Notes under the pieces: generated by a model
Seen by the model: the letters and a program-made list of their open reading frames with translations, nothing else
The model's database searches: none
Told to the model about the DNA's origin: nothing
Position numbers and translations under genes: made by a program
Shown here: one piece after another, positions 37,871 to 54,307 of the stretch
Numbering within the stretch: position 1 is the stretch's first letter
Layout of the letters: each line of letters starts with the position of its first letter
NCBI GenBank assembly: GCA_035700105.1
Contig: DASSOZ010000029.1
Coordinates: 13,605 to 77,604, forward strand
Direction: 5' to 3'
From: Acidimicrobiales bacterium
GTDB taxonomy: Bacteria > Actinomycetota > Acidimicrobiia > Acidimicrobiales > DASSOZ01
DNA length: 64,000 nt

Positions 37871-40800
37871 GTGCGTCGGAAGGTCGTGCCCTATCTCGTC
37901 GCGCTCGTCGCCCTGGCGACGGCCGCGCCGCTCGTCGTCGTCGCCCGCGCCACGACGACGTCCACGCCCGCCAGCGCGGCGACGAAGATCGCGCCAGCGC
38001 TGCGACAGCTCCTCGCCGACGGCTACGGCGACGTCGACATCGCCTCGATGGTGCCCGGCTACGTCGCCGGTCACGTCGAGTACCTCGCGAAGATGACGTC
38101 GATCGACCCCGTCACCCGCACCGCGCTCCGCGCCGCCGGTGCGAGCGTCCGGCACGAGTTCCCCGAGATCGGTTGGGTCGCGCTCGACTCCGCGCCCGAC
38201 GCTGTCGCCGCTGTCGCCGCCCTCCCGCAGGTGACCGAGCTGCGTGTCGACGACGTCAAGCACGTGCTCGACCTCGATGTCCGCTACGTCGATGCCGCCA
38301 CCGCCGCAGCCAGCGGCTATCTCGACCAGACCAAGCGCGGGACGCACGACGTCGGCGCCGACACGCTCTGGGCGAACGGCGTCACCGGCAAGGGCGTCGT
38401 CGTCGGCGTCGCCGACAGCGGCATCGATCAGAGCCACCCCGACCTCGCCGACAAGATCACGCAGTTCGTCGACTGCAGCGCCGTCCTGCCGAACCTGGCG
38501 GCGAGCGACGACAGCGACAGCGGTGTCGGCGATTGCATCGCGCACTTCGGCATCGACGACAACGGCCACGGCACGCACGTGTCGGGCATCGCCGCCGGCG
38601 GCGCCAACGGGGGGACGCCCGACCAGAAGGGCAAGCTGCCCGGCATGGCGCCCGGCGCGAGCCTCGCGGGCGCCAAGGTCTGCACGCCGGCGGGCACGTG
38701 CCTCAACTCCTCGGTGATGGCCGGCTTCCGCTGGCTCGCCACCGACGTGAAGGACGGCGGCGCCGGTGCCGACGTCGTCAACATGAGCCTCGGCGGCGGG
38801 CGGACGTACGGCTCGCCGGTGTTCGGTGCCGAGCAGGTGACCGACACCGATCCCGAGGCGCAGCTCGTCAACCAGCTCGCCGACAAGTACAACGTCGTCT
38901 TCACGATCTCGGCCGGCAACAGCGGCCCGACGTTCCAGAGCGTGGGCAACCCGTCGGTCGCCGCGCAGGCGATCTCGGTCGGCGCGTCGATCGCCGACTT
39001 CGACCTGGACCACCCGGTCGACCAGACCGAGCACGGCGAGTTCGGCGACATCCGCCCCGATGCGGTGAAGGCGCACGCCACCGCGATCGCGTCGTTCTCG
39101 TCGCGCGGTCCGTCGGGCGACCGCCAGATCAAGCCCGAGCTGACCGCGCCCGGCAGCTACGTCGTCGCCGCGCAGTCGAAGGAGGGCGGCGAGGTCGGCG
39201 CCGCCGACGCCGCCCACATGAACCACTACAGCCAGGACCTGAACTACGCGGTCCTGTCCGGCACGTCGATGTCGTCGCCGGCGGCCGCCGGCGTCGCCGC
39301 GCTGCTCGTCGACGGCTTCCGCCAGGCGACGGGCGGCACGTCGCCGCAGTACTTCCACGTGAAGGCGGCCATGGCGAACACCGCCGGCACGCACGCGTTC
39401 GAGGGCCCGGTGGCCGGCCTGCTCGGCACGATCAGGTCGCGCACCGGTCTGCCCGGTCAGACGCCGGCCGAGCTGTACCCCAACCGCAACGACGGGTACG
39501 TCGGCGTCGGCGGCGAGGGCGCCGGCCGGGTGAACGCGGTCGACGCGCTCCTCGCGCTCACGAAGGGCGTGATCGCGTACACGCCGCGTTCGGAGGACGG
39601 GAAGCTCGACGACAAGCGCGAGCAGCAGCCGAACTGGGCGCTTGACGACGTCGCGCCCGGGGAGAGTCGCGACCAGCGCTTCATGTTCCACCCCGCGCCC
39701 GGCCGCACGACGCCGGCGAGGGCGACGTTCCACGTCGACAGCGGCACGGAGCCGGCGGGCATCCACGCCATCCCGGCATCGTGGTTCGCGCTGCCGAAGT
39801 CCGTCACGATCAACCCGCGGACGCCGGACCGCTGGGACACCGGCTTCTACCTCCACGTGCGCGTGCCCGCGAACGCGGCGCCCGGCCAGTGGAACGCCAC
39901 CGTGGTCGCCGACGTCGCGCTCGGCGGCGGCGTCACCCAGCACGTCCGCATCCCGGTGCAGCTGTTCGTCCCCCTGCCGGCGGCACCGACGGTGTCGATC
40001 GAGGGCCCGGTCTGGGCGTCACAGAGCACCGACTGGTCGGTCGTCGGCGCCGAGAACCCCGAGGGCGACGTCTACACGGACTGGATCTCGTTCCCCCTGC
40101 GACTCACCAAGGACACGAAGGAGGTCGACCTCTCCGTCTACGACGCCAAGGCCGACGGCGCCGACCACATGGACGTGTTCGTGTTCGACGACAAGGGGGT
40201 CGAGATCGACTCGACCGTCACGAACTCGACCGACCACGTCGTGCCCGAGGCGCTCGCGCTGACGCCGACGACGAAGGACGCACCCGCGACCGTGTCGCTG
40301 CTCGACGGCGACGACCTGACCGACGTCGTGCTGCCGACGACGGTGTGGGTCATGGTCGCCGACAGCGGCCGCACGAGCGGGGCACCCGGGTTCCGAGACT
40401 TCCACCTCGACGTGACGACGACCGGTGGCGGCACCGGCGGGACGACACCCGCCGACCGCATCCACTCGGGCGAGCACGCGTGGTGGAGCGGGTCGGGCGA
40501 CGGCATGACGAGCACGCTCACCCGCTCGATCGCGGTCCCCGCCGGCGCGACGTCGTTGTCGTTCTGGACGTGGTACCAGCTCGAGGACGGCTACGACTGG
40601 GCGTACGCGCTCGTGTCGACCGACAACGGCGGCACCTGGACGAGCCTGGCGGCGTCGAGTCCCGACGACGGCAGCGGGACGACCGACCAGGACCCTCTCG
40701 GTCTCGTCGGGAACGCGCTCGGCGGGTCGAAGGCGTATCCGAACGGGTTCACGGGCGACTCCGGGTCGCCGGCGACGTTCACCGGTCAGAACCTGTTCGG

Positions 40801-41035
40801 CGGGGTGCTGTCGCACCAGGTCGCGGACGTGTCGGCGTACGCGGGCAAGACCGTGCTCCTGCGGTTCGCAGCGACGTCGGACGGCGGCACGAGCCTCGAC
40901 GGGTTCTACGTCGACGACCTCGCGCTGACCGGCCCGGGCGGCGCGACGGTGTGGTCCGACCCGGTCGACGCGCCGACCGGCTGGACTTCGGGCGGCCAGC
41001 CCGGGTTCGGCTTCGTCACGAAGGCCGCGGGCTAG
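37871..41035 (+). CDS. secreted subtilisin-like S8 serine peptidase with large C-terminal extension
   Basis: Signal peptide, then catalytic triad contexts VGVADSGID (Asp), DDNGHGTHVSG (His) and LSGTSMSSPAAAG (Ser). The C-terminal ~200 aa (SLSFWTWYQLEDGYDWAYALVSTDNGGTW) resemble the immune-inhibitor-A-type beta-sandwich tail. Confidence 0.85.
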   Translation: MRRKVVPYLVALVALATAAPLVVVARATTTSTPASAATKIAPALRQLLADGYGDVDIASMVPGYVAGHVEYLAKMTSIDPVTRTALRAAGASVRHEFPEIGWVALDSAPDAVAAVAALPQVTELRVDDVKHVLDLDVRYVDAATAAASGYLDQTKRGTHDVGADTLWANGVTGKGVVVGVADSGIDQSHPDLADKITQFVDCSAVLPNLAASDDSDSGVGDCIAHFGIDDNGHGTHVSGIAAGGANGGTPDQKGKLPGMAPGASLAGAKVCTPAGTCLNSSVMAGFRWLATDVKDGGAGADVVNMSLGGGRTYGSPVFGAEQVTDTDPEAQLVNQLADKYNVVFTISAGNSGPTFQSVGNPSVAAQAISVGASIADFDLDHPVDQTEHGEFGDIRPDAVKAHATAIASFSSRGPSGDRQIKPELTAPGSYVVAAQSKEGGEVGAADAAHMNHYSQDLNYAVLSGTSMSSPAAAGVAALLVDGFRQATGGTSPQYFHVKAAMANTAGTHAFEGPVAGLLGTIRSRTGLPGQTPAELYPNRNDGYVGVGGEGAGRVNAVDALLALTKGVIAYTPRSEDGKLDDKREQQPNWALDDVAPGESRDQRFMFHPAPGRTTPARATFHVDSGTEPAGIHAIPASWFALPKSVTINPRTPDRWDTGFYLHVRVPANAAPGQWNATVVADVALGGGVTQHVRIPVQLFVPLPAAPTVSIEGPVWASQSTDWSVVGAENPEGDVYTDWISFPLRLTKDTKEVDLSVYDAKADGADHMDVFVFDDKGVEIDSTVTNSTDHVVPEALALTPTTKDAPATVSLLDGDDLTDVVLPTTVWVMVADSGRTSGAPGFRDFHLDVTTTGGGTGGTTPADRIHSGEHAWWSGSGDGMTSTLTRSIAVPAGATSLSFWTWYQLEDGYDWAYALVSTDNGGTWTSLAASSPDDGSGTTDQDPLGLVGNALGGSKAYPNGFTGDSGSPATFTGQNLFGGVLSHQVADVSAYAGKTVLLRFAATSDGGTSLDGFYVDDLALTGPGGATVWSDPVDAPTGWTSGGQPGFGFVTKAAG

Positions 41036-41045
41036 GAGCTCTGGC

Positions 41046-41083
41046 GGTGACCGATGTCACCGTCCTCCGACGAGGAGTTTGTG
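41046..41083 (+). terminator. two short hairpins plus T-rich tail after the S8 gene
   Basis: GGTGAC-CGAT-GTCACC (41046-41061), then TCCTC-CGAC-GAGGA followed by GTTTGTG. Weak stems. This begins a locally AT-richer stretch. Confidence 0.35.
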
Positions 41084-41118
41084 AATCGGTTCTCGTACTC
41101 TGGAGTAGTTACTCCACA

Positions 41119-41265
41119 ATGAGGAGCCGACCCGCCGTGACCGATACGAACGCCGCCGCCGCCCGCCGCTGGATCGCCGAGCGCCTGCTCTGGGAGCGCT
41201 TCCTCGAGCAGACGGTTCGCGCCGCCGACGGCGCCGAGCCCGTCGAGCAGCGCCCCGCCGCCTGA
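41119..41265 (+). CDS. hypothetical 48-aa protein
   Basis: MRSRPAVTDTNAAAARRWIAERLLWERFLEQTVRAADGAEPVEQRPAA. Preceded by palindrome TGGAGTA-GT-TACTCCA (41101-41116) and followed by hairpin family 2 copy B. No homology recognised. Confidence 0.3.
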   Translation: MRSRPAVTDTNAAAARRWIAERLLWERFLEQTVRAADGAEPVEQRPAA

Positions 41266-41276
41266 CACCCCCGTTC

Positions 41277-41324
41277 GAGGTTGATGCCGTGGACCCCCGT
41301 GAGCGGTGGTCCACGGCATCAACC
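41277..41324. repeat. 48-nt palindromic hairpin repeat, family 2 copy B
   Basis: AGGTTGATGCCGTGGACC-CCCGTGAGCGGT-GGTCCACGGCATCAACCT: perfect 18-bp stem and 12-nt loop, which ends in AGCGGT as in copy A. Confidence 0.8.
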
Positions 41325-41348
41325 TGGATGGGATGAACCGGTCCAAAC

Positions 41349-41366
41349 CCTGACACGACCGTCAGG
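41349..41366. promoter_or_regulatory. 18-bp palindrome CCTGAC-ACGACC-GTCAGG (operator candidate)
   Basis: Perfect arms. Lies 44 nt upstream of GTG 41411. Confidence 0.6.
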
Positions 41367-41410
41367 GAAACGGACAGGGTTGCCCCGGCCACCCGTCGAA
41401 CAGTGACGGG

Positions 41411-42826
41411 GTGCGAGTCGTCCGGGGCGTCCGCCGCTGCTGCTTCGGCGTTGCCGCCGTCCTGGCCGCCTCCGCGCTGCTCGCGCCGGCCGCGCAGGGG
41501 GACACGAGCGAACGTCCGGGGACCTGGGCGAGCCGGGCGTCGGCGACCGCCGTCGGAGTGATGTTCAACACCGTCCCGCAGCAGGTCGTGCCCGAGATCC
41601 TCAACGTCGCGTTCCCCGACAGCGACACGGAGTTCAGCCCGTCGATCGGCAAGGCACGCGCCTCGACCGTGTATCCGGGCCTGCTCGTCACCCAGGGCGC
41701 CAACCTCACGTGCCAGTTCTCGTGCGCGCCGGTGCCTCCGTACCCCCTCACCGCGTATGCCGACGGGCAGACGCCGGACGCGAAGATCGCCACCGGGCAG
41801 TCGGTGCCGGTCGGACCGGGCGGCCTCGAGGCGGGCACCGCGGTCGCCCACGTCGGCGACGACGGCACGACGGCGAAGGCGGTCAACGGACGCTTCGACC
41901 TCTCCGGCAGCGCGACGTCGGCGGCGGCCGCGCTCGCCTTGCGAAGGCAGATCACGGCGATCGTGAAGGGACCCATCGCGGCGGCGAGCGTCAAGCCGAC
42001 CGCCGACGACGCGTCCCTGGTCCACGTCGACTCCTCGGTGTCGGAGACGACGAACACGTTCAAGGGCGGGACGCTCGTCGTGACCGCGACCTCCACGCTG
42101 AAGGGCGTGCACCTCCTGGGCGGCACGATCGACATCGACTCGATCGTCAGCACGGCGTCGTCGACCAGCGACGGCCAGGCCGCCAAGGTGAACCGGTCAC
42201 TGACGATCGCCGGCGTGACCGTCGCCGGGCAGCCCGCGCACCTCGACGACAAGGGACTCGCCATCGGACCGAGCGGCTCGCAGGGCGGGGACGGCTTCGA
42301 CGCTCTCAACGACGCGCTGAAGAGCGCGCTCGGCGCCGCCGGTGTCGACATCCACGCGCTCACCGGTTCACAGGACGTGCAGGGCTCGTCGGGCAACGCC
42401 AGCATCGAGGGCGTCCTCGTCTCGGGCAAGAGCGACGGGGTCGCCGGCAACGGCGCGATCGCCAGCGTGCTGTTCGGCAGGGCCGGTGTCGAGAACTCGG
42501 CGTCGCCGTTCGAGGCGCTCGGTGATGACCTCGGCGACGTCGGCGGGATCACCGGCGACGCCGGCGCCATCACCGACACGGGCGGGCTCGGCGACGTCTC
42601 GCTGCCGTCGGTGTCCGGCGGGTCGGCCGCGCTGCCGTCGGCGTCCTCCGGTAGCCGCGGCACGGCGCAGCCGGCGGCGCCAGCAGCCGCCGGCTCGCAG
42701 CGCGCGAACGCCCGGAACGTCGCGTTCGTCGATCCTGCCGCCGGACGGCTGCACTCGCTGTACCTCGCGCTCGCCCTCGCCGCCGTCGGCGTCGCCCTCG
42801 GGTGGCGGCGCATCCTCCCGACGTGA
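41411..42826 (+). CDS. cell-surface protein with signal peptide and C-terminal TM anchor, family not recognised
   Basis: 471 aa. N-terminus CCFGVAAVLAASALLAPAAQG. A G/S/T/D-rich body contains the LLGGTIDIDSIVSTASSTSDG segment. C-terminus LHSLYLALALAAVGVALGWRRILPT. Confidence 0.65.
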   Translation: MRVVRGVRRCCFGVAAVLAASALLAPAAQGDTSERPGTWASRASATAVGVMFNTVPQQVVPEILNVAFPDSDTEFSPSIGKARASTVYPGLLVTQGANLTCQFSCAPVPPYPLTAYADGQTPDAKIATGQSVPVGPGGLEAGTAVAHVGDDGTTAKAVNGRFDLSGSATSAAAALALRRQITAIVKGPIAAASVKPTADDASLVHVDSSVSETTNTFKGGTLVVTATSTLKGVHLLGGTIDIDSIVSTASSTSDGQAAKVNRSLTIAGVTVAGQPAHLDDKGLAIGPSGSQGGDGFDALNDALKSALGAAGVDIHALTGSQDVQGSSGNASIEGVLVSGKSDGVAGNGAIASVLFGRAGVENSASPFEALGDDLGDVGGITGDAGAITDTGGLGDVSLPSVSGGSAALPSASSGSRGTAQPAAPAAAGSQRANARNVAFVDPAAGRLHSLYLALALAAVGVALGWRRILPT

Positions 42827-42852
42827 CGACCACGAACCAGGAGCCGCACCGC

Positions 42853-43446
42853 ATGGCCACGCACACCGACGACCTGCCCGACCCCGCGCTGTTCTGGCGA
42901 TGGGTCGGCCGGGCGACCCGACCGGTCGTGGGCTGGGTCCTCACCGGCATCGGCGCGCTCGCGCTGCTGATCGGCTACCTCGGCATCAGCCGCGAAGCCA
43001 TCGTCGCCAAGCAGATCCCGTACCTCATCTCCGGCGGGATCGGCGGCCTGGCGCTGCTGATCATCGGTGCGGTGTTCCTCGGGACGGAGGACGTGCGTCG
43101 CGACGCCGCCCGCCTCGACCGGCTCGAGACCATGGTCGAGCAGTTGCACGCCGCGCTGCTGGTCGCCGACCCGTCGACGCCGCCGCTCGCGTCCGACCTC
43201 ACCGACTTCTCGTCGCCATCCCGACCCGAGCGGCCCGACGCCGTCGAGAGCTCCGTCGAGGGGGCCGTGTCGACGAACGGGGCCGGCACCGGCGTCGTCG
43301 TCCTGCCGCAGGGGCGCAGCTTCCACCGCGCCGACTGCCCCATGGTCGAGGGCAAGCCGAAGGCGCAGGCGGTCCCGGCGGACCGGGCGACCTCACGCGG
43401 CCTCGTGCCGTGCCGGTTGTGCGAGCCGCACGTCGCCGGCGTCTAG
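42853..43446 (+). CDS. two-TM membrane protein with C-terminal Ada-like zinc-binding motif
   Basis: 197 aa. AGGAG SD lies 10 nt upstream. Two TM helices (VVGWVLTGIGALALLIGYL and ISGGIGGLALLIIGAVFL), a coiled segment, then FHRADC-x24-PCRLCEP. Confidence 0.6.
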   Translation: MATHTDDLPDPALFWRWVGRATRPVVGWVLTGIGALALLIGYLGISREAIVAKQIPYLISGGIGGLALLIIGAVFLGTEDVRRDAARLDRLETMVEQLHAALLVADPSTPPLASDLTDFSSPSRPERPDAVESSVEGAVSTNGAGTGVVVLPQGRSFHRADCPMVEGKPKAQAVPADRATSRGLVPCRLCEPHVAGV

Positions 43447-43481
43447 TGGCCCGTCTCGCACGTTCCAGTGGCGTCTCGCCG

Positions 43482-43570
43482 GCTGTCGACGCCGATGGCT
43501 GCGTTCCGACTCCTCGCGGTGGGGCAAGGCCAGCGCGTCGTCGCCGCGCCTTGCCCTCGACGCCGACAGC
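43482..43570 (+). other. structured leader candidate upstream of the LIV permease gene
   Basis: Inner perfect 9-bp stem GGGCAAGGC-N17-GCCTTGCCC (43522-43556), enclosed by 12/14 pairing of GCTGTCGACGCCGA (43482-43495) with TCGACGCCGACAGC (43557-43570). Confidence 0.35.
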
Positions 43571-43612
43571 CCGGCGATCCATCCACATGACGTACGAAAC
43601 GGACCACTCGTC

Positions 43613-45622
43613 GTGTTCTACCTGCAGCTGATCCTCGCCGGCATCGCCACCGGCTGCATCTACTCGCTCGCCGGCATGGGCGTCGTGTTGACGTACAACG
43701 CCACGGGCGTGTTCAACTTCGCCCACGGCGCCATCGCCACGTTCGTCGCCTACACGCTGTGGCAGCTGAACGCCGGGTGGGGCGTGCCGCTCGCGATCGC
43801 CGCGCCGATCAGCCTCGTCGTCATCGGCCCCGGCCTGGGCTTCCTGCTCGAGCGTGTCGTGTTCCGCCCGCTCGCCCGACGGGGCGCGGGGACGTCGGAG
43901 AAACTCGTCGCCACACTCGGCATCTTCGTCCTGCTCCTCGGCGTCACGTACGTGATCTGGACCGGCAACGTCCGCCAGGGGCCGCGCCTCATCAGCAGCC
44001 GCCCGCTCGAGCTCGCCAGCGGGTTGCGCATCGGACTCGACCAGCTCGTCGTCGTTCTCCTCGCCGTCGTCCTCTCGGTGCTCGTGTGGTGGCTGTTCCG
44101 CCGCACCCGCCTCGGATGTGACATCCGCGCCGTGGTCGACCGCCGCGAGCTCGCGGAGCTCGCCGCCGTCGACTCCGACCGCGTCGCCGCCATCGCGTGG
44201 GCGATCGGATGCGGCTTCGCCGGGCTGACCGGCGTGCTCTTCGCGCAGAACGGCCTCGATCCGTACCACCTGACGCTGCTCGTGGTGGAGACGTTCTCGA
44301 TCGCCGTCGTCGCCCGGCTCACCTCGCTGCCGATGGCGCTCGCCGCCGGCGTGCTGCTGCTCGGTGTCGGCCACAGCCTGCTCACGCAGTTCAACCCGTT
44401 CGCCGGCAGCACGGCCGGGCGCATCGTCGCCGAGCTCAAGCCGAACCTCTCGGTCGTCATCCTGTTCGCCGCGCTCGTGCTGTACCGGCGCCTCGACGTC
44501 GTCGGCGAGGACGGTGACGGCGGGCTCGGGCGCATCGGGCGCGGACGTCGCTCGCGCCGGCGCAGCCCGTCGGGTGCGTCGCCGGCCACCGGCGCGCGGG
44601 CCGTCGTGCCGGCCCTCGTGGCGTTCGGATTCGTGGTCCTGCCGTTCTTCCTCAGCCGCACGACGTGGGCCTACGGTCACCGCCTGCCGGCGCTGGTGAT
44701 CGTGTTCGCGTCGATCGTCGCCGTGACCGGCTTCAGCGGGCAGATCAGCCTCGGGCAGGCGGCGTTCGCCGGCTTCGGCGCCTTCCTTTCCGCCCGGCTG
44801 TCGAACACGTACGGGCTGCCGGTGGTGCTGACGATGCTGCTCGGCGGGCTCGGCGCGATCGTCCTCGGGTTGATCGCCGGGCTGCCGGCCGTCAAGCGGC
44901 GGGGGCTGTTCCTCGCGCTGACGACGCTCGCGCTCGGCCTGCTCGTCTACAGCCTGGTGTTCCAGTCGACGGTCTTCGCCGGCGGCGTCAACGGGCTGCG
45001 GGTGACGCGGCCGTCGCTGTTCGGCTGGTCGCTCGACGGGTCGTACGCGTTCTACTACTTCGAGCTCGCCGTGATGAGCGTCATGCTGCTGCTGGCGCGC
45101 AACCTGCGCAGCGGACGCCTCGGCCGCATCCTCGCCGCCATCCGTGACTCGGAGACGGCGGCGAAGTCGGTCGGCATCGACCTGCGCACGTACAAGCTCT
45201 TCATCTTCGCCGCGTCCGCGTTCATCGCCGGGATCGGCGGTGCGCTGCTGACGATGCAGTCCAAGGCGTTCTCGGCGTTCCAGTTCGAGCCGCTGCAGTC
45301 GTCGCTGCTGTGGTTCATGGTCGTGATCGTCGCCGGCGTCGACTCGATCGGCGGCGCCGTGCTCGGCGCGGGACTGTTCGTCATGCTCGACGTCGTCGTG
45401 AAGCAGGACGGCGTGTCGCAGCTCGTCATCGGTGCGATCGCGCTCACGCTCGGGCGTCTCCCCGGCGGGAACCTGCTCGGTCTGCTGCGGTCGATCGGCG
45501 ACGGCGCGGTGCGGCGGCTCGAGCGGGTGTTCGTCGACGCGGCCGGGTCGCGAGAACGCGCGCCGGCGCCGACCTTCCGGCCCAGTCCGCTCGCGCTCGA
45601 CCTCATGGAGCGATCCCGATGA
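43613..45622 (+). CDS. branched-chain-amino-acid-type ABC transporter, fused LivH-LivM permease
   Basis: One uninterrupted frame. The N-terminal half is LivH-like ([38 protein letters not shown]). An Arg-rich linker follows, then a LivM-like C-terminal half ([16 protein letters not shown]). GTG 43613 is the chosen start and is uncertain. Confidence 0.8.
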
Positions 45623-46377
45623 CGGTCCTCGAAGCGGTCGGGATCACGAAGCGCTTCGGTGGGCTGATCGCCGTGAGCGACGTCGCACTGCGCGTCCCCG
45701 GCGGCGAGATCACCTCGCTGATCGGGCCGAACGGCGCCGGCAAGACGACGACGTTCAACTGCCTGACGGGTCTGCTGTCGCCCGACGGCGGTCGGGTCCT
45801 GCTCGACGGGACCGACCTCGCCGGGCTCGACACGCACGAACGGGCGCGGCTCGGCATCGGGCGCACGTTCCAGCGCCTCGAGGTCTTCACCGGGATGACC
45901 GTGTTCGAGAACCTGCAGGTCGCGGCCGAGGCCGCGAACCCCGGAAAGGTGTTCGCCGGCGTGTTCCGGCTGCGCCATCCCGACGAGCCCGCCGTGGTGT
46001 CGCAGGTCGACGCCGTCCTCGACCGCCTCGGTCTCGCGTGGGCGCGTGACGAGGTCGCCGGCGACCTGCCGACGGGCGTGCTACGGCTGGTGGAGCTCGG
46101 CCGGGCGCTGTGCACGCGGCCGAAGGTGCTGCTGCTCGACGAGCCGGGCTCGGGGTTGGACTCCCGCGAGACCGAGCACTTCCAGCGGCTGCTGCTCGAC
46201 GTCGCCGGTGACGGTGTCGCGGTGTTGCTGATCGAGCACGACGTCGACCTCGTGATGGCGGTGTCGTCACGGATCTACGTCATGGACTTCGGCCGCTTGA
46301 TCGCCGAGGGCACGCCGTCGCAGATCGCGCGCGATGCCGCCGTGCGCGCTGCGTACCTCGGGTCGGAGGTGGCGTAG
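45619..46377 (+). CDS. livG: branched-chain-amino-acid-type ABC transporter ATP-binding protein
   Basis: Walker [10 protein letters not shown], the LivG-type [16 protein letters not shown], signature [15 protein letters not shown] and Walker B LLLDEP. ATGA overlap with the permease stop. Confidence 0.9.
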
Positions 46378-47112
46378 GTGGCGTCGGCGCACGCGCTCGA
46401 GCTGTCGAGCGTCACCGCGGGCTACGGGAAGGTCGAGGTGCTGCACGACCTCTCGCTGTCGGTGCCGGCCGGGTCGGTCGTCGCGCTGATCGGTCCGAAC
46501 GGCGCGGGCAAGACGACCACGCTGCGGGCGCTCGCCGGGACCCTGCCGGTGTGGCGGGGGTCGATCTCGCTGGCCGGTCAGCGCATCGACGGGCTGCGTC
46601 CCGTCGACCGGGCACGGCGCGGGCTGACGCTGATCCCGGAAGGGCGCGGCATCTTCCCGGGCCTGTCGGTGCGGGACAACCTCGACCTGTCCGTGCGGGC
46701 CGACCGCTCCGCCCGTGAGTCGGTGCGCCGGGCGCGACTCGACGACGTCCTCGAGACGTTCCCCCGCCTGCGCGAGCGCCTCGACCAGCGGGCAGGGACG
46801 CTGTCCGGCGGCGAGCAGCAGATGCTCGCACTCAGCCGGGCGCTGCTCGCCGATCCGAAGGTCCTGCTGATGGACGAGCTGTCGATGGGGCTGGCGCCCA
46901 AGATCGTCGAGCAACTCTTCGAGACCGTCGGCGCGCTCAAGGCCCGCGGCCTCACGATCCTGCTGGTCGAGCAGTACCTGACGTACGCGCTGCGCTACGC
47001 CGACATCTGCTACGTGCTGTCGAAGGGCCGGGTGTCGTTCGTCGGCGAGCCCGCCGAGCTGCGCGACTCCGACGAGCTGTCGAGCAGTTACCTCGGCGCG
47101 TCGGCCGGCTGA
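46378..47112 (+). CDS. livF: branched-chain-amino-acid-type ABC transporter ATP-binding protein
   Basis: Walker [10 protein letters not shown], signature LSGGEQQMLA and Walker B LLMDELS. Starts directly after the livG stop. Confidence 0.9.
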   Translation: MASAHALELSSVTAGYGKVEVLHDLSLSVPAGSVVALIGPNGAGKTTTLRALAGTLPVWRGSISLAGQRIDGLRPVDRARRGLTLIPEGRGIFPGLSVRDNLDLSVRADRSARESVRRARLDDVLETFPRLRERLDQRAGTLSGGEQQMLALSRALLADPKVLLMDELSMGLAPKIVEQLFETVGALKARGLTILLVEQYLTYALRYADICYVLSKGRVSFVGEPAELRDSDELSSSYLGASAG

Positions 47113-47570
47113 GCGAGGCCGTCGACCACCTCGGCTCCCGGCAGGGCCGCGAGCGCGGTCGGCGCGACACGGATCTTCAGCGACCGGCTGCCGCCGCCGA
47201 CGACCACCGTCGGTCTCGACATGACGGCGGCGTCGATCCACAGCGGAAGGTCGTCGGGGAGCGCGAACGGCGTGACGCCGCCGATCATCATGCCGGTGAG
47301 GGCGGTCGTCTCGTCGGCAGACGCGAACGACGCCTTCTTCACGTCGAGACGGCGCCGGACGGCGCCGTTGACGTCGAGGCGCGTGGTCGCGAGCACGACG
47401 CACGCGACGTAGCGCCGCGGGTCGGTCTTGCCGACGACGACGATCGTGTTCGCCGAGTCGTCGGGCGCGACGCCGTAGCGCTCGCAGAACGCGGCGGTGT
47501 CGGCGAAGTCGGGATCGCAGTCGATGAGCTCGTGCTCGACGCCGGCGAGCGCGTCGACGACGGACTTCAT
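47088..47570 (-). CDS. YbaK/prolyl-tRNA-synthetase-associated editing-domain protein
   Basis: 160 aa from ATG 47570, with an ATGA overlap on the upstream gene. Contains the TGMMIGGVTPFALP motif. The ORF-track 260-aa entry is an over-extension. Confidence 0.75.
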   Translation of the reverse strand: MKSVVDALAGVEHELIDCDPDFADTAAFCERYGVAPDDSANTIVVVGKTDPRRYVACVVLATTRLDVNGAVRRRLDVKKASFASADETTALTGMMIGGVTPFALPDDLPLWIDAAVMSRPTVVVGGGSRSLKIRVAPTALAALPGAEVVDGLAQPADAPR

Positions 47571-48043
47571 CGGACGAGGTCGAGGAGGGGTTCGAGCTGG
47601 TCGGCGGGGACGAGGAACACGCGCGGGTCTCCCTTGCGCTGGACGTAGTAGCCGTGGCCGTCGAAGTTCACCTTGCCCACCAGGATCGTGCGGACACGGT
47701 TCGTGCCGCGGTAGGTGATCGTCGCCGCCGGCGCGTCGAGGCCGTACGACGCCAGCGGCTCCGGTGAGTCGAACAGCCGGCCGGTGAGCAGCGGCGACGC
47801 CTTCGAGAACATCGTCGTCGGGACCTCGGCGCGGCGCCCGTCCGCGCTCGTGACCGTGATCGACGTCCACGCCGACGCCCGCTCAGGCACCACGTTCGGC
47901 GGCACGGTGTCGCGCGTCGCCGCCGACCCGTCGCCTCCGGAACCGCATGCCGCCAGCACGACGGCGAGTGCGACGGCGAGTGCGACGGCGAGTGCGACGG
48001 CGGCGGCGCCCCCTCCGTGCTTTGTGTCAGTTCGGCCCGCCAT
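47567..48043 (-). CDS. DUF4340-like lipoprotein (fourth gene of the GldG/ABC-2 operon)
   Basis: Signal/lipobox region (VALA)n VVLAAC. The C-terminal LVGKVNFDGHGYYVQRKGDPRVFLV resembles DUF4340. I chose ATG 48043; GTG 48061 is the alternative. Confidence 0.6.
   Translation of the reverse strand: MAGRTDTKHGGGAAAVALAVALAVALAVVLAACGSGGDGSAATRDTVPPNVVPERASAWTSITVTSADGRRAEVPTTMFSKASPLLTGRLFDSPEPLASYGLDAPAATITYRGTNRVRTILVGKVNFDGHGYYVQRKGDPRVFLVPADQLEPLLDLVR
47961..47996 (-). repeat. 12-bp tandem repeat (ACGGCGAGTGCG)x3, coding for (VALA)n in the signal peptide
   Basis: Three exact tandem units read on the plus strand, with a degenerate fourth. Confidence 0.85.
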
Positions 48044-48068
48044 ACGCCCCCCAACTGACACAAAGCAC
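48017..48068 (-). other. perfect 16-bp stem with 20-nt loop containing the SD-like G6 run and the ATG of the DUF4340-like gene
   Basis: mRNA sense reads GUGCUUUGUGUCAGUU-GGGGGGCGUAUGGCGGGCCG-AACUGACACAAAGCAC. The arms were read as exact reverse complements (48017-48032 and 48053-48068). Confidence 0.7.
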
Positions 48069-48085
48069 CGGAGGGAGGGAGCCGG

Positions 48086-49453
48086 TCATGCGGGTTGGCG
48101 GCGGCGGCGCCAGACGAACGAGGCGACGCCGGCGAGCACGACGAGGCCGGGGACGAGCCCGACGGTCACGAACAGGGTCTCGCGCTGACGCTCGGCCGTC
48201 CACGGCAGCGGGCGCGACCCGGGCAGCCGGGTCGCGACGGTGAGCAGCTCCTCCTCCTGCGTGAGCCACGCCAGCGACCCGACCAGCAGCCGCCGGTTGC
48301 CGAGCCGGTCGAGCAACTGGTTCGTCGGCCACTCCGCCGAACCGGTGGCGACGACGCGCGTGCGGACGATCCCCGGGCGCGGCGTGCCCGACCCGACGCG
48401 CCGCTCGGCGCCCGCCTCGACGCGGCTGTCGTCGGCCGCCGCGGCCAGCACGACGGGGCCGGGAACGTCGCCCGCGTCACGGGAGAACCCGGCGTCGGGG
48501 GTCGACTCGATCCACGCCGCGGCGCTCGACACCGCCAGGCGCGACACCGTGAGACCCGACGGCGTCTCGTCCGCCGGCTGCGTGAGGAACCCGCCCGTCA
48601 CCGGCAGCTGGAGGCGGGGGATCCCGTCCATCACCGGGTTGGCGGTGGGGAAGTCCTCGGCGACGACGTCGGTCGGGTCCACCGACGCCGACCGGTCCGG
48701 GTCGGCCACCACCCCACCGAGGAACGTCATCCCGTACGGCTCGAGGAGCGGGTTGACGTTCGCCTCCGACAACGGCGACGCGAGCACGAGCACCTTCCCG
48801 GCCGCCCTCTCGTAGCGGACGAGCGCGTCGGTCTCGGCCGGCGTGAACGCCACCCGCGGGCCGGCGACCCATACGACCTCGCAGGACGACGGGACGTCGC
48901 CGCCGCGGGCCAGGTCGAGCGTCGCCGCCCTGTACGCGTTCTGCTCGAGCAGCGTCGCCACCTTCGACAGCCCGCTCGGCCCGTCGTCGTCGAGCGACGC
49001 CTCACCATGTCCTGTGGTGACGCAGACCGTCGGCGTGCGGGCCCGGAGCAACCGCAGGATGGCGGTCGCCAGGTCGGGCTCGGTGACCTGCGGCGCGTCC
49101 GCCCGGCGTCCCCGGTACTGCACGACGACGGTGGCGTACGAGGTGATGCCGAAGCGCCGCGCCTCGGACGGGCGCTCGTCGGGATCGACGATCTCGTAGT
49201 CGATGTGACGGTTGAGCTCGTGGAACCGGGCGAGCAGGAAGCGGGCGTCGCGCGCCGACCCGCCGGTGTCGTTCATGAACGCGGTGACCTTCAGGTGCTG
49301 GCGCACCGCCTTCACGACGGCTCGCGTCTCGGGCGACAGTGAGAACCGGCGGTTGGCGGACAGGTCGACCTGCGCCCGCGTCGACGCGGCGGCGACGTTG
49401 GCGACGACCAGCACCAACGCGATCACGGCACCGACGACCAGGCGACGCGTCAC
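48086..49453 (-). CDS. GldG-like ABC-type uncharacterized transport system auxiliary protein
   Basis: 455 aa with N- and C-terminal TM anchors and a large exported domain. Sits after an ABC-2 permease, as in gldA/F/G-type operons. Confidence 0.7.
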   Translation of the reverse strand: MTRRLVVGAVIALVLVVANVAAASTRAQVDLSANRRFSLSPETRAVVKAVRQHLKVTAFMNDTGGSARDARFLLARFHELNRHIDYEIVDPDERPSEARRFGITSYATVVVQYRGRRADAPQVTEPDLATAILRLLRARTPTVCVTTGHGEASLDDDGPSGLSKVATLLEQNAYRAATLDLARGGDVPSSCEVVWVAGPRVAFTPAETDALVRYERAAGKVLVLASPLSEANVNPLLEPYGMTFLGGVVADPDRSASVDPTDVVAEDFPTANPVMDGIPRLQLPVTGGFLTQPADETPSGLTVSRLAVSSAAAWIESTPDAGFSRDAGDVPGPVVLAAAADDSRVEAGAERRVGSGTPRPGIVRTRVVATGSAEWPTNQLLDRLGNRRLLVGSLAWLTQEEELLTVATRLPGSRPLPWTAERQRETLFVTVGLVPGLVVLAGVASFVWRRRRQPA

Positions 49454-50139
49454 CTGCGCGCCTCCACGATCGCGACGGCGGCGTACACGCCGACGACCGC
49501 GAGCGACACGAAGTACGCGACGTCACCGGCGGCGAGGGTCCCGCGCAGGAAGCCCGTGACGTGCGTCGAAGGTGACAGGTACCGCAGCACGGTCCGCACG
49601 GCACCGTCACCGAGCCCGTCGGCGATGCCCGCGCCGAACCAGAGCGCGAGCAGCAATCCCGCCGAGGCGGCCGCGGCGACGAGCTGGTTCGCAGTCGCCG
49701 CCGACGCGGCGAGTCCCACCGACAGGAACGCGACGCCGACCAGCACCAGGCCGACGTAGCCGGTGACGATCGGCCCCGCGTCCGGGTTGCCCATCCTCGC
49801 GACGAGCCACGGACAGACCAGCGTCCCGATGACGAGCAGCACGAACAGCGATACGACACCGAGCAACTTTCCGCCGACGACCTCTGCCGTCCGGACCGGC
49901 GACGTCAGCAAGAGCTCGAGGCTGCCGGCCCGCTCCTCGTCGGCCAGCGTCCGCATCGCCAGCAGCGGCGCGAGCACGCCGGTGGCGATGAACAGCCAGG
50001 CGAACCAGTCGTCGAGACGCGCCGCGCCGGCGCGCAGCGCGAGGACGAGCAACAGCCCGGCGAACGCGAGGAAGCCGGCGACGAGCCCGAAGCCGAACGC
50101 GGTCCCGAAGGCCGACCGCAGCTCCCGCCCGGCGATCAC
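49450..50139 (-). CDS. ABC-2 type transporter permease
   Basis: About six hydrophobic segments. The motif EERAGSLELLLTSPV is typical of GldF/ABC-2 permeases. Start GTG 50139 is uncertain. Confidence 0.7.
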   Translation of the reverse strand: MIAGRELRSAFGTAFGFGLVAGFLAFAGLLLVLALRAGAARLDDWFAWLFIATGVLAPLLAMRTLADEERAGSLELLLTSPVRTAEVVGGKLLGVVSLFVLLVIGTLVCPWLVARMGNPDAGPIVTGYVGLVLVGVAFLSVGLAASAATANQLVAAAASAGLLLALWFGAGIADGLGDGAVRTVLRYLSPSTHVTGFLRGTLAAGDVAYFVSLAVVGVYAAVAIVEARR

Positions 50140-50168
50140 CGCGACCCGGCGTGTCGACGCGAGCAGCG

Positions 50169-50894
50169 TCAGCCCCGCACGAGTTTCAGGTACGCCTCTT
50201 CGAGGCTGCCGGTACGCGTCGCGTCGGTGAGCGCGGCGATGTCGTCGACGGCGAGCACGCGGCCGTGGTCGAGCACGACGACCCGCCTGCACAGCTGCGT
50301 CACCTCGTTGAGCAGGTGGCTCGACAGCAGCACGGTCCGTGTCTTCGCCAGGCGGCCGATGAGCTTGCGCGTCTCGACGACCTGCTCGGGGTCGAGCCCC
50401 GCGGTCGGCTCGTCGAGCACGAGGACGGGCGGGTCGTGCACGAGCGCCTGCGCGAGTGCGACGCGCTGGCGGTACCCGCGCGACAGCGCGCCGACGAGTT
50501 GGTGCTCGACACCGCGCAATCCGGCCTGCGTGACGACGCGCTCGACACGATCGCTGCGGCCGTCGCGAGCGACGCCTCGCAGCTGCGCCCAGAACCGCAG
50601 GAACCGGTCGACGCGCATGTCCCGGTACAGCGCGCTCGCCTCCGGCACGTACCCGCACAGTCGCTTCGCGCCCACCGGATCGACCGAGGGGTCGACGTCG
50701 CCCACCAGCACCCGGCCCGACGTCGCCCGCAGGTAGCCCGTGAGCACCCGCATCGTCGTCGTCTTGCCGGCGCCGTTCGGACCGAGCAGACCGAGCACCT
50801 CGCCGGGCCGCACGTCGAACGTCACGTCCTCGATCGCCACCGCCCGCCCGAACCGCCGGGTGACGCCCTCGAGTTGGACGGCGACGCCGCTCAT
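50169..50894 (-). CDS. ABC transporter ATP-binding protein
   Basis: Walker [10 protein letters not shown], signature LSRGYRQRVALA and Walker B LVLDEPTAGLD. I chose ATG 50894; GTG 50936 is the alternative. Confidence 0.9.
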   Translation of the reverse strand: MSGVAVQLEGVTRRFGRAVAIEDVTFDVRPGEVLGLLGPNGAGKTTTMRVLTGYLRATSGRVLVGDVDPSVDPVGAKRLCGYVPEASALYRDMRVDRFLRFWAQLRGVARDGRSDRVERVVTQAGLRGVEHQLVGALSRGYRQRVALAQALVHDPPVLVLDEPTAGLDPEQVVETRKLIGRLAKTRTVLLSSHLLNEVTQLCRRVVVLDHGRVLAVDDIAALTDATRTGSLEEAYLKLVRG

Positions 50895-51093
50895 CGCGCC
50901 GAAGGGTAGGCCGCAGCCCTCGCGACCGAACGGCACGTGCGAGGTGCGACGAACTCGGTCGCTCGCGCGCGCGAGGGGGTGAGACGGTCCGCGGCCCCGT
51001 CGGTCGGGAGGGCCCCGCCGCCCGGAGCGCAGCGCAGGGTGGTGGGAGGGACCCGAGCCGACACCGTGGCGAAGGGCCGTCCGGGGGACCGCC

Positions 51094-52706: not shown

Positions 52707-54272
52707 CTACGAACCGTCGTCGGTGGGGGTGTACGGGTAGTACGGCATGTCGCCGCACTGCTTCGCCCGCGTCACGAACGTCCCGGCCGAGTCCTGCCAC
52801 TGGTGCAGGTCGAAGCAGTCGCTGTGCGGCTTCGAGTGGTCGAGCGGCTGCCACGAGACCGGGTCGTCCATCAGTCCGGCGATCGTGTAGTCCGCGTCGT
52901 CGCCGATCGAGTTGAGCCAGTCGACGAGGCCCTTGCGCGTCGGCGACGCGCCCATCTTCGCCACACCCTCGGTGAACAGCTTCCCGGCCGCCCACCCCTC
53001 GAGCGCCCACTGGTGGAGCCGGAAGCCCGGGTCGAACTTCTTCATCGCCGCCCGGAACTCGGCGACCGGCGCGCTCGTGGTCTCGGCGTACGACTTCGAG
53101 TCGGTCTGGGCCCACACGTCGTTGCGGCACGGCGCGCTGAAGTCCTGCCCGACCTTCTGGCTCATGCCCTGGATCGTGGAGACGTTGGCCTTCACGCGGA
53201 AGCTGTAGCGGTCCATCGCCTGGCACAGCTTCTGGAAGCCGGCGATGTCGATCGCGTTCCAGATGCCCTGCACGCCCCTGTTGCGCATCTGGATGACGTC
53301 GGTGTCGAACGTCGGCGCCGCCGGGTTCATGCCGGCGTCGCTGCCGCCGCCGTAGTAGACGGGCTCGATGCCCTGCTGGCGCAGGCCGTCGGCGATGAAC
53401 ATGCCCGCGGTGCGCGAGATCGGGATGAAGTAGAAGAAGACGGCGGCCTTGTCGATCTTCACCTGCTGCTTGAAGTACCGGTACGCGCCGCCCTGCGCGT
53501 AGAGCTTGCCCTTGTCGCCGACGCTCTTGCCGTCGCGCGGCGTGTCGACGCCGAGGATCGAGAACAGGTGGGGGTACTTGTAGTAGGCGTTGCCGATCGG
53601 CTGGCCGCCGATGTCGGGCACGCCCTTCGAGTCGATGTACTTCCCGGCGGCGAACGTGTCCGTCGACCCGGCGACGAGGGCGAACACCTTCTGGTTCTCG
53701 ACGAGGTTCTGCGCGCAGGCGAGGTCGCGGTCGGACGACTCGCGGTCGTCGCACGTCGAGAACTTCACCTTGCGGCCGTTGACGCCGCCTCGCTCGTTGA
53801 GCGCCTGGAAGAACGCCTGGGCGCCATGGAGCATCCCGCTGAACGCCTCTGGGCCGATGGGGCCGCCGACCGCGGTGATGTTGCCGACCTTGATCTCGCT
53901 CGCCGTCACGCCGACGTCCGACGCCGTGTTCGTCGCGCTCGCACCGGTCCGCGTCGGTTCGCCGGCGCCGGCACCACCACCGTCCCCACCCGCACCGCCG
54001 TTCTCCGACGCAGTCGGAGTCTGCGCCCCGTTCTGGGCCCCGGGATCCGATCCTGTTGGAGCACCCGGGGACGCGGTGCTCGTGTCGAGGGCGTCGTCGC
54101 CGGCGGCCTGATCGCCGCCCGAGGCAGCTGCGGTGCGACCACCCGGGCGAACCTCGCCCCCCGTGCCGGCGGCGGTCTGGAAGGCCTCGTCGGGCAGCCG
54201 CGTCCCGCACGACGCCGCGAGCAAGCCCACCGCCGCCATGACGACCCAGACCGGTCGGACGCGTCGACGCAC
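52707..54272 (-). CDS. LIV-type (PBP type 1) ABC substrate-binding lipoprotein, paralog 1
   Basis: GTG start with a G6 SD. Lipobox LLAASCG and a long low-complexity linker. The body is collinear with paralog 2, and the C-termini match (PYYPYTPTDDGS versus WFPYTPQDDGS). Confidence 0.85.
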   Translation of the reverse strand: MRRRVRPVWVVMAAVGLLAASCGTRLPDEAFQTAAGTGGEVRPGGRTAAASGGDQAAGDDALDTSTASPGAPTGSDPGAQNGAQTPTASENGGAGGDGGGAGAGEPTRTGASATNTASDVGVTASEIKVGNITAVGGPIGPEAFSGMLHGAQAFFQALNERGGVNGRKVKFSTCDDRESSDRDLACAQNLVENQKVFALVAGSTDTFAAGKYIDSKGVPDIGGQPIGNAYYKYPHLFSILGVDTPRDGKSVGDKGKLYAQGGAYRYFKQQVKIDKAAVFFYFIPISRTAGMFIADGLRQQGIEPVYYGGGSDAGMNPAAPTFDTDVIQMRNRGVQGIWNAIDIAGFQKLCQAMDRYSFRVKANVSTIQGMSQKVGQDFSAPCRNDVWAQTDSKSYAETTSAPVAEFRAAMKKFDPGFRLHQWALEGWAAGKLFTEGVAKMGASPTRKGLVDWLNSIGDDADYTIAGLMDDPVSWQPLDHSKPHSDCFDLHQWQDSAGTFVTRAKQCGDMPYYPYTPTDDGS

Positions 54273-54289
54273 GGAACCCCCCAGTAAGT

Positions 54290-54307
54290 CCTGACGTCCG
54301 TGTCAGG
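54290..54307. promoter_or_regulatory. 18-bp palindrome CCTGAC-GTCCGT-GTCAGG (operator candidate)
   Basis: Perfect arms. Lies 17 nt upstream of GTG 54272. The right arm contains the stop codon of the upstream MFS gene. Confidence 0.6.

Follow-up and report, generated by a model that had tools for sequence, protein, structure and literature searches.

A stretch of 64,000 nucleotides (nt) of the Acidimicrobiales contig DASSOZ010000029.1 (hereinafter the window; GC content, 72%) carries two adjacent genes directly ahead of a LIV-type ABC importer, and the question that they raise is whether they form an envelope module of their own or belong to the transporter that follows them. Gene 1 (positions 41411 to 42826, forward strand) has a GTG start and encodes a 471-amino-acid (aa) choice-of-anchor P family protein, and gene 2 (42853 to 43446, forward strand) has an ATG start and encodes a 197-aa membrane protein with an Ada-like zinc motif. 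An initial annotation, made from the letters of the DNA, had read the pair as an operator-controlled two-gene module and as a candidate for envelope sensing or signaling. By comparing the locus with its counterparts in other genomes, we found that relatives of gene 2 are physically linked to one type of transporter, the HAAT type, across lineages and gene orders and that gene 2, usually together with gene 1, is inherited along with the HAAT ABC importer genes. We consider it fairly probable that genes 1 and 2 specify two unrecognized accessory components of a HAAT ABC importer by which actinobacteria take up an organic or fatty acid; more confidence is due to the linkage itself than to this overall picture, and much less to the specific contacts between the proteins.

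Linkage of the gene pair to a HAAT importer

Both genes are real coding genes. Their open reading frames (ORFs) are present as first annotated, with the same lengths, gap, and ribosome-binding motif: the best start of gene 2 is the ATG at 42853, 26 nt past the stop of gene 1, with an AGGAG 9 nt upstream of it, and the third-position GC of the two genes (0.94 to 0.95; 0.94 in gene 1) equals that of the flanking genes. They are followed on the forward strand by genes for a fused LivH-LivM-type permease (43616 to 45622; 668 aa; Pfam BPD_transp_2 in two stretches, E = 3.6e-53), the start of which was chosen by means of an alignment to the related locus L088, a LivG-type ATPase (45619 to 46377; 252 aa; Pfam ABC_tran and BCA_ABC_TP_C), and a LivF-type ATPase (46378 to 47112; 244 aa; Pfam ABC_tran). 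By Pfam, these three proteins comprise the core of a HAAT/LIV system, i.e., two BPD_transp_2 domains and two ABC ATPases, one of them with a BCA_ABC_TP_C tail. The five-gene block itself has no binding-protein gene. A candidate cognate substrate-binding lipoprotein (SBP) is encoded 5.6 kb away from it in the window (52707 to 54272, reverse strand; 521 aa; Peripla_BP_6, Pfam E = 8.2e-33); the protein has an LAASC lipobox, then a low-complexity tether of about 100 aa, and then the Peripla_BP_6 domain. We regard it as a putative partner of the permease; the SBP gene is an immediate neighbor of the operon in many relatives.

Searches with gene 2 recovered 508 homologs at E ≤ 1e-3 in a protein collection, the few source-named ones among them being proteins of Acidimicrobiia, Acidimicrobiales, or Gaiellales metagenome-assembled genomes (MAGs), and no relative in a plasmid collection. 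At least 206 GTDB species-representative genomes of Actinomycetota contain relatives, most of these genomes being from uncultured Acidimicrobiia of soil; the carriers include Acidimicrobiia, Nitriliruptorales, and MAGs of Mycobacteriales and Frankiales, as well as Nocardioides marmoriginsengisoli and Actinospongicola halichondriae, which are cultured. For the analysis of gene context, 80 GTDB loci were kept (79 with a gene 2 ORF), 43 of them fully flanked, and their ORFs were classed with hidden Markov models (genes 1 and 2) and phmmer (permease, ATPases, and SBP). HAAT ABC genes lie near gene 2 in 72 of the 80 loci, and the seven loci that have no ABC genes are all on short or edge contigs. 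Among the fully flanked loci, every one (43/43) has HAAT ABC genes within 6 kb of gene 2, 35 have a gene 1 family member directly upstream of gene 2, and 33 have a related SBP gene within 7 kb. The two genes are kept as neighbors in relatives, a relative of gene 1 usually being found immediately upstream of gene 2. What did not survive is the idea of a self-contained module: the permease and ATPases do follow the pair, as was originally described, and the pair is part of the gene set of that importer at all of these loci.

The linkage persists through five gene orders, namely, g1-g2-perm-G-F (frequently followed directly by a convergent SBP gene), sbp-perm-G-F-g1-g2, sbp-perm-g1-g2, perm-perm-G-F-g2, and g2-perm-G-F (where g1 and g2 are genes 1 and 2, perm is the permease gene, and G and F are the ATPase genes). 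The entire five-gene block is kept on long contigs in L001, L004, and L006, with 33 to 67% identity to that of the window; the gene 2 relatives in these are 52 to 67% identical, and the upstream gene encodes a protein of 512 to 522 aa that has no Pfam match and aligns to gene 1 at 33 to 50% identity. A divergent gene 1 subfamily (L092) shows the same succession of ATPase, gene 1, and gene 2. In five MAGs with two loci each, every permease gene stands next to its own gene 2, and both copies have a gene 1 call in four of the five. In at least 14 loci the longest gene 2 ORF begins 3 nt before the gene 1 stop, and such an overlap is compatible with translational coupling, the true starts possibly being different. 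The similarities of gene 2 and of the permease to their counterparts in the window are correlated (Spearman coefficient, 0.85; n = 40), which largely reflects a split into two clades.

Two groups of loci have peculiarities of their own. The sbp-perm-g1-g2 type is represented by the 14-kb loci L045, L050, L053, L062, L072, L076, L078, and L084, in which no LivG or LivF ATPase gene is found within the 14 kb and genes 1 and 2 occupy the ATPase slot, which means that these loci must share ATPases or rely on ones encoded elsewhere. Two MAG contigs labeled "uncultured Burkholderiales" (L014, CAZTOV010000019.1; L020, CAYTKN010000005.1) carry an actinobacterial-type g1-g2-LivHMGF set with an SBP gene, and L014 additionally has the core of the operator found in Acidimicrobiia (see below); these contigs are probably misbinned or mislabeled.

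Architecture of the two proteins

The gene 2 protein combines an N-terminal interfacial helix, a transmembrane (TM) hairpin, a heptad-spaced helix, a disordered linker, and a C-terminal finger resembling the N-terminal domain of Ada. Its hydrophobic segments (about aa 25 to 45 and 56 to 77) form the hairpin, the second helix of which extends as far as aa 103, its Leu/Val residues being spaced 3-4-3-4, in keeping with the two TM helices and the coiled segment recognized at the outset. An AlphaFold2 (AF2) model has a predicted local distance difference test score (pLDDT) of 78 overall and of >90 in the hairpin and C-terminal domain; the linker between them is 20 to 67 aa long, depending on the family member. 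The TM region, and not the finger, is the most conserved part of the protein: it has the invariant residues W15, W17, R23, P24, G27, W28, S46, Q54, P56, S60-G62, T78, and E79, and the N-terminal interfacial helix and the short outer loop (SRE..VAKQ.PYLISGG) are likewise among the most conserved elements. Mean counts of flanking Lys/Arg residues in the family are 5.0 at the N terminus, 4.0 after the second TM helix, and 2.0 in the loop, and the higher counts at the termini favor an N-in/C-in topology with the finger in the cytoplasm. No family in Pfam or NCBIfam matches gene 2 above threshold, its whole-protein profile retrieved nothing meaningful from the PDB sequences, and the only Foldseek matches of the whole model were to generic helical hairpins (best E = 0.38). 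Two homologs bear the JGI label "HAMP domain-containing"; HAMP is not among the Pfam matches at E ≤ 1 of 60 members of the family.

The C-terminal domain (aa 147 to 193; 43291 to 43431, forward strand) contains the candidate zinc ligands H158, C162, C187, and C190 in the pattern H158-x3-C162-x24-C187-x2-C190. The motif had been written as FHRADC-x24-PCRLCEP; it is present, and the figure of 24 is the Cys-to-Cys distance, the string itself being FHRADC-x23-PCRLCEP. H158 never varies across an alignment of 121 sequences, in which C162, C187, and C190 are 99% conserved; all four are invariant in alignments of 60 and 71 relatives; and H-x3-C-x20-25-C-x2-C is present in 85 of 91 gene 2 ORFs of relatives, at least one of the exceptions (L033) being caused by a frameshift that leaves the motif in a separate ORF. 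A profile of the domain made from 71 sequences aligns with residues 1 to 92 of Escherichia coli Ada with a probability of 91% in hhalign over 47 columns (domain positions 4 to 50 against Ada residues 29 to 77), so that its His and three Cys residues fall on C38, C42, C69, and C72 of Ada, with the invariant His in the place of C38. The same profile retrieves all four PDB sequences for Ada's N-terminal domain (1ADN/1EYF, 1WPK, 1U8B, and 1ZGW) at E values of 0.075 to 0.15. Pfam Ada_Zn_binding (PF02805) is not reported for the gene 2 protein of the window and matches 22 of 60 relatives below threshold (best E = 0.019). The best-scoring Pfam model for this domain is DUF6233 (PF19746), which scores 16.3 bits (E = 0.01) against gene 2, below its cutoff of 27.6 bits, and matches all of the 60 relatives at E ≤ 1 (best E = 1.5e-5), these matches too being called subthreshold; a precomputed PF19746 assignment exists for two homologs. 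On the strength of the subthreshold DUF6233 and Ada_Zn_binding matches, the hhalign result, and the PDB retrieval, the resemblance to Ada is real at the level of sequence profiles, and the Ada-like layout with a His for the first Cys holds as originally proposed.

The AF2 model of the finger consists of strands at 147 to 150, 156 to 159, and 172 to 175, a helix at 176 to 181, and a short strand at 185 to 186, all with a pLDDT of >90; the domain, of about 45 aa, is net basic (seven Lys/Arg against four Asp/Glu). As He et al. are said to have reported in 2005, Cys38 is the methyl acceptor of Ada. The ECOD paper (PMC12353581) names Cys69 for this role. In gene 2 the position of Cys38 is an invariant His, and with either residue as the acceptor a structural zinc site appears more likely than a methyl transfer site. 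A role for gene 2 as a sorting enzyme acting on the C terminus of gene 1 was considered and set aside, the domain being only about 45 aa long with a His/Cys pattern that aligns with the zinc ligands of Ada.

The gene 1 protein begins with a signal-like segment (about aa 1 to 30) and continues with a beta-rich body (aa 40 to 365), an A/G/S/D-rich tether (aa 366 to 441) of low AF2 confidence (pLDDT, <50), and a C-terminal TM helix (aa 442 to 465) with a basic tail ending in RRILPT. Gly, Ser, Thr, and Asp make up 37% of its residues (54% with Ala), and there is no LPXTG (LP.TG) sortase motif anywhere in the protein. These features agree with the first description of the protein. It had also been called unclassified, which no longer holds: aa 166 to 276 (41906 to 42238, forward strand) match positions 3 to 120 of the 185-position NCBIfam choice-of-anchor P model NF040603 with 29.2 bits (E = 7.7e-7), above the cutoff of 27 bits, and the model also matches 38 of 43 sampled relatives (best E = 3e-11). 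A word-indexed homolog search was swamped by low-complexity words (12 to 14 matches), and an exhaustive HMMER search recovered the family, which comprises 1,134 clusters (50% identity) at E ≤ 1e-3; among the 150 best matches listed, full-length relatives have about 420 to 620 aa. All of the 43 sampled relatives have a hydrophobic, signal-like N terminus and a C-terminal TM helix with a basic tail. This helix, usually preceded by a conserved R-x3-LYLA motif, is conserved in sequence beyond mere hydrophobicity. An RR in the signal region (possibly for Tat) is missing in about 40% of relatives. The only invariant residues of the 43 relatives are Pro and Gly, so catalytic residues are not conserved and an enzyme appears unlikely. 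One subfamily (alignment A6; e.g., P0134, P0218, P0222, and P0263) has the tail C-x-H-G-L-x2-G-[LIV]-P-D-L-R-K in the place of the P-A-R-L-P tail, and the one member of it that was examined, L092, pairs with a gene 2-like gene.

The AF2 model of gene 1 (pLDDT, 65; predicted template-modeling score, 0.65; core pLDDT, 80 to 94) shows long antiparallel strands arranged as a meander, plus two long helices. No internal repeats were found by hhalign self-comparison, and the whole-protein profile retrieved nothing meaningful from the PDB sequences. Foldseek returned FadL, porins, and OmpT with E values down to 4e-6 at TM-scores of 0.08 to 0.25 and root mean square deviations of 13 to 23 Å; we rejected an outer membrane barrel on these grounds and take the matches to the model as a resemblance between beta-meanders and not as a shared fold. 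The lack of an SBP gene in the operon of the window led us to consider gene 1 as a substitute for the SBP, which was likewise rejected: related loci hold both an SBP gene and gene 1, and the window has a coregulated SBP gene. A role in antiphage defense was dismissed when PADLOC gave no match at E ≤ 0.1 for either gene.

The shared operator and the surroundings of the operon

The palindrome CCCTGAC-ACGACC-GTCAGGG (41348 to 41367) precedes the gene 1 start by 44 nt and corresponds to the operator noted initially before the pair. A second copy (54289 to 54308, reverse strand) precedes the SBP gene, 17 nt upstream of its start. CCCTGAC-N6-GTCAGGG occurs five times in the window at ≤3 mismatches, against 0.02 expected, and the relaxed core CTGAC-N6-GTCAG occurs nine times (starting at 33, 549, 7556, 9717, 18251, 25436, 32754, 41350, and 54291), against 0.055 expected. 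By ORF coordinates, every relaxed copy sits between long ORFs or close to a likely true ORF start, i.e., in a promoter-proximal position. In comparison with L088, a locus 88 to 90% identical to the window, the arms of the operator are conserved and its spacer differs, as would be expected for a protein-binding site. In L001, L010 to L012, L014, L018, L019, L027, and L088, too, a relaxed core precedes the gene 1 homolog by about 100 to 250 nt, thereby extending the operator to other Acidimicrobiia. It is present in 14 of the 27 loci L008 to L034 and absent from all of the loci L035 to L087, though these keep gene 2.

Besides the gene 1 operon, the operator precedes the SBP gene and seven acyl-CoA-type catabolic units in the window. 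By Pfam, these other copies adjoin a unit of Usp, acyl-CoA synthetase, and acyl-CoA dehydrogenase, a hydantoinase B gene, a thiolase gene, an SDR/ADH unit, two divergent acyl-CoA dehydrogenase genes, and an old-yellow-enzyme gene. The units that share the operator look like a catabolic regulon, and on account of the acyl-CoA-type ORFs adjoining its copies, the transporter appears to belong to a regulon for acyl-CoA/beta-oxidation-type catabolism. Judging from these neighboring genes, the transporter probably imports an organic or fatty acid. Among the window ORFs that were scanned, none was recognized as a repressor gene.

Several further elements surround the operon. The 169-nt spacer between gene 2 and the permease gene (43447 to 43615) contains an inverted repeat (GGGCAAGGC...GCCTTGCCC) that is unique within the window and the loci compared. 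The spacer is missing in L088, where the corresponding gap is 3 nt, and a gap similar to it is seen in the gene coordinates of the 99% identical relatives L093 and L094. It has no Rfam match, and Rfam returned no credible RNA element anywhere from 40800 to 43800. Directly upstream of the operon, positions 37871 to 41035 (forward strand) encode a 1,054-aa secreted subtilase (Peptidase_S8) with a C-terminal InhA-like MAM domain; its gene is syntenic in L088 to L091 and is called as two genes in L093, possibly owing to an assembly frameshift. Between this gene and the operator is a 48-aa ORF (41119 to 41265, forward strand; MRSRPAVTDTNAAAARRWIAERLLWERFLEQ...), for which gene callers give a 42-aa gene in L088 to L091 and L093 and which contains 70 nt identical to L088, compared with an average identity of 88%. 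A conserved perfect palindrome, GGAGTA-GT-TACTCC (within 41072 to 41118), stands just 5′ of its ATG. Past this small ORF, at 41275 to 41328, is an inverted repeat with 25-nt arms that are 92% complementary and a 4-nt loop. In L088 the arms change at facing positions, and the pairing is mostly preserved, with one U-G wobble; this retention of pairing suggests an RNA hairpin or a terminator without a T-tract. On the other side, a cluster of the GldG-like auxiliary type (47567 to 50936, reverse strand; an ABC-2 permease, an ABC ATPase, ABC_transp_aux/DUF7088, and DUF4340) separates the LIV operon from the SBP gene, and the same insertion is found in L004 and L094.

Possible roles and relation to known systems

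In the arrangement that we favor, genes 1 and 2 would open an operator-controlled operon that continues with LivHM, LivG, and LivF; together with the separately encoded, coregulated Peripla_BP_6 lipoprotein, this operon would specify a HAAT/LIV-type importer that feeds an organic or fatty acid into acyl-CoA/beta-oxidation-type catabolism. The gene 2 protein would be a membrane adaptor bound to the transporter, with its N-terminal interfacial helix, TM hairpin, and short outer loop contacting the permease and its heptad helix (aa 78 to 103) probably dimerizing. Its flexible linker of 20 to 67 aa would display a structural H-Cys3 zinc finger in the cytoplasm, where contacts of this finger with the LivG/LivF ATPases or with a soluble partner might tune or couple transport. 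The gene 1 protein would be held in the same complex via its conserved C-terminal TM helix, and its tether of about 75 aa, similar in length to that of the SBP, would display a nonenzymatic beta-sheet domain outside the membrane as a platform for substrate capture or SBP docking.

Several points weigh against this picture. The contact of both proteins with the transporter is drawn from genomic linkage alone, and a detectable gene 1 is missing in 8 of the 43 fully flanked loci, so gene 1 is not obligatory. Some loci (type C) have no ATPase genes nearby, which weakens a role in contacting the nucleotide-binding domains. The correlation between gene 2 and the permease arises mostly between clades and is confounded by phylogeny, with within-clade coefficients of 0.36 to 0.42 that are not significant. 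The PDB matches of gene 1 are only to barrels at the low TM-scores given above, which makes a binding role a guess, and the substrate is deduced solely from neighboring genes. The topology of gene 2 follows from the positive-inside rule only, and some Clostridioides proteins have their ADA_N-like domains outside the cell (PMC12353581).

The same linkage would equally be seen if the two proteins were biogenesis or stability factors that assemble, stabilize, or localize the transporter or its tethered SBP, much as LucA stabilizes the mycobacterial Mce1 and Mce4 transporters. The dispensability of gene 1 in some lineages, its lack of conserved catalytic residues, and the long flexible tethers on gene 1 and the SBP alike suit such factors. 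The overlap of gene 2 with gene 1 in their longest ORFs, the presence of a separate gene 2 for each transporter copy, and the highly conserved hairpin fit a stoichiometric subunit better, without being decisive, and we give biogenesis factors a rather small chance. A transport-coupled regulator, or "trigger transporter," in which the gene 2 finger binds DNA or sequesters a repressor at the membrane and flux or capture by gene 1 controls the regulon, would draw on the DNA binding of the homologous domain of Ada, the net basic finger on its long flexible linker, the operator that the operon has in common with at least eight further units of the window, and the failure to find a repressor gene among the ORFs scanned there. 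We think it unlikely: gene 2 is kept regardless of the patchy occurrence of the operator core across loci L008 to L087, L075 has its own TetR gene adjoining gene 2, and the domain is only about 45 aa long, has no helix-turn-helix (HTH) partner, and bears a His at the equivalent of Ada Cys38. Moreover, tethering to the membrane makes it improbable that gene 2 binds nine dispersed operators directly.

An autonomous two-gene sensing or signaling module that merely happens to be upstream of an unrelated LIV importer, close to what was proposed initially, has on its side the superficially sensor/transducer-like combination of a surface protein with a membrane protein whose terminal domain is probably cytoplasmic and the JGI label on two homologs. 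It is largely refuted by synteny, the HAAT ABC genes being present at every fully flanked locus in all five arrangements. PADLOC, Pfam, and NCBIfam detected no signaling domain that could provide an output in either protein, HAMP went unmatched in the 60 members searched, and Pfam scans of about 5 to 10 kb on either side found no kinase or transcription factor. We rate such a module as very unlikely. None of the three observations that the initial annotation had named as speaking against it was made, i.e., the genes do not cease to be neighbors in relatives, the Cys/His motif is not lost, and the two proteins do not both fall in characterized families. Even the view that gene 1 is an ordinary surface adhesin or wall protein, gene 2 an unrelated membrane protein, and their adjacency to the transporter meaningless can appeal to the generic nature of choice-of-anchor surface proteins and to the absence of a functional annotation for either gene; it is scarcely credible in the face of an adjacency that holds across orders of Actinomycetota and through rearrangements and of an operator held in common with the SBP gene. 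Genes 1 and 2 might also form a trans-envelope regulatory arm built into the importer, in which gene 1 reports substrate at the surface, the gene 2 hairpin relays this, and the tethered, basic finger binds nucleic acid or captures the repressor of the regulon. We doubt that this is so; if true, it would couple uptake with transcription of the acyl-CoA regulon and constitute a new kind of trigger transporter subunit.

Small membrane proteins encoded with a transporter that bind it and modulate or stabilize it are familiar from the TM helix of LptC in LptB2FGC and from LucA/Mam of the Mce systems; these are lipid handlers with different permease folds, and no sequence or fold relationship of genes 1 and 2 to them was found. 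In contrast to Ada, the gene 2 finger is C-terminal, follows a TM hairpin, has no HTH or methyltransferase partner, and has a His and three Cys in the place of the four-Cys ligand set. Gene 1 matches NF040603 in being secreted with a C-terminal anchoring segment and differs from it in that the model covers only about 110 of its 471 residues, the anchor is a plain TM helix with a basic tail and an R-x3-LYLA motif of its own, and descriptions of the family do not include linkage to ABC transporters. DUF6233 (PF19746), of which no mention was found in the literature, is the best Pfam model for the gene 2 finger, and the gene 2 protein of the window scores below its cutoff.

A membrane-tethered Ada-like domain is not unprecedented. 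Pei et al. (2025; PMC12353581) describe remote ADA_N-like domains at the C termini of diverse Gram-positive proteins, and their ADA_N-like ECOD X-group spans residues 1 to 76 of E. coli Ada, the Mycobacterium tuberculosis membrane protein ArfC, and others. These domains are assigned no function there, and some of their zinc sites are degenerate. The gene 2 finger shows the remote whole-domain profile similarity to Ada residues 1 to 76 by which the group is recognized; it appears to share with these domains the small size, the two ligands after an early strand, the two in a C-terminal PCxxCxP element, and the C-terminal position in non-Ada proteins, and ArfC is also membrane anchored. Gene 2 differs in having a His and not a Cys as its first ligand, a TM hairpin and not one TM helix, and linkage to an ABC importer, and section 2.2 of that paper (PMC12353581) names no example with its architecture. 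By sequence comparison, gene 1 is a member of a named, uncharacterized family and the gene 2 finger a new ADA_N-like member, within an architecture of TM hairpin, heptad helix, and finger that lies below the Pfam and NCBIfam cutoffs. Their association with the importer would provide the first functional context for ADA_N-like fingers outside Ada and for the choice-of-anchor P family, offers the hypotheses of a tethered zinc finger that regulates the ATPases or recruits partners, and could allow annotation pipelines to call both genes transporter associated instead of hypothetical.

The closest known system remains the HAAT/LIV family itself, textbook five-component ABC importers. No component like gene 1 or gene 2 is known to us from the Liv, Bra, Nat, or Urt systems as described. 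The literature searched on HAAT auxiliary components, LivHMGF accessory proteins, DUF6233, choice-of-anchor proteins, and ArfC, the coverage of which was incomplete, did not describe the association. Like LIV-I (LivJ/K-LivHMGF; TC 3.A.1.4), the present system has a BPD_transp_2 permease, here as a LivH-LivM fusion, and two ATPases, one LivG-type with a BCA_ABC_TP_C tail and the other LivF-type; a Peripla_BP_6 protein is the candidate binding protein. Unlike LIV-I, it has two further conserved genes and a putative SBP gene that is detached and yet preceded by the same operator, and this coinherited extra membrane pair would define an unrecognized architectural variant of the HAAT/LIV family.

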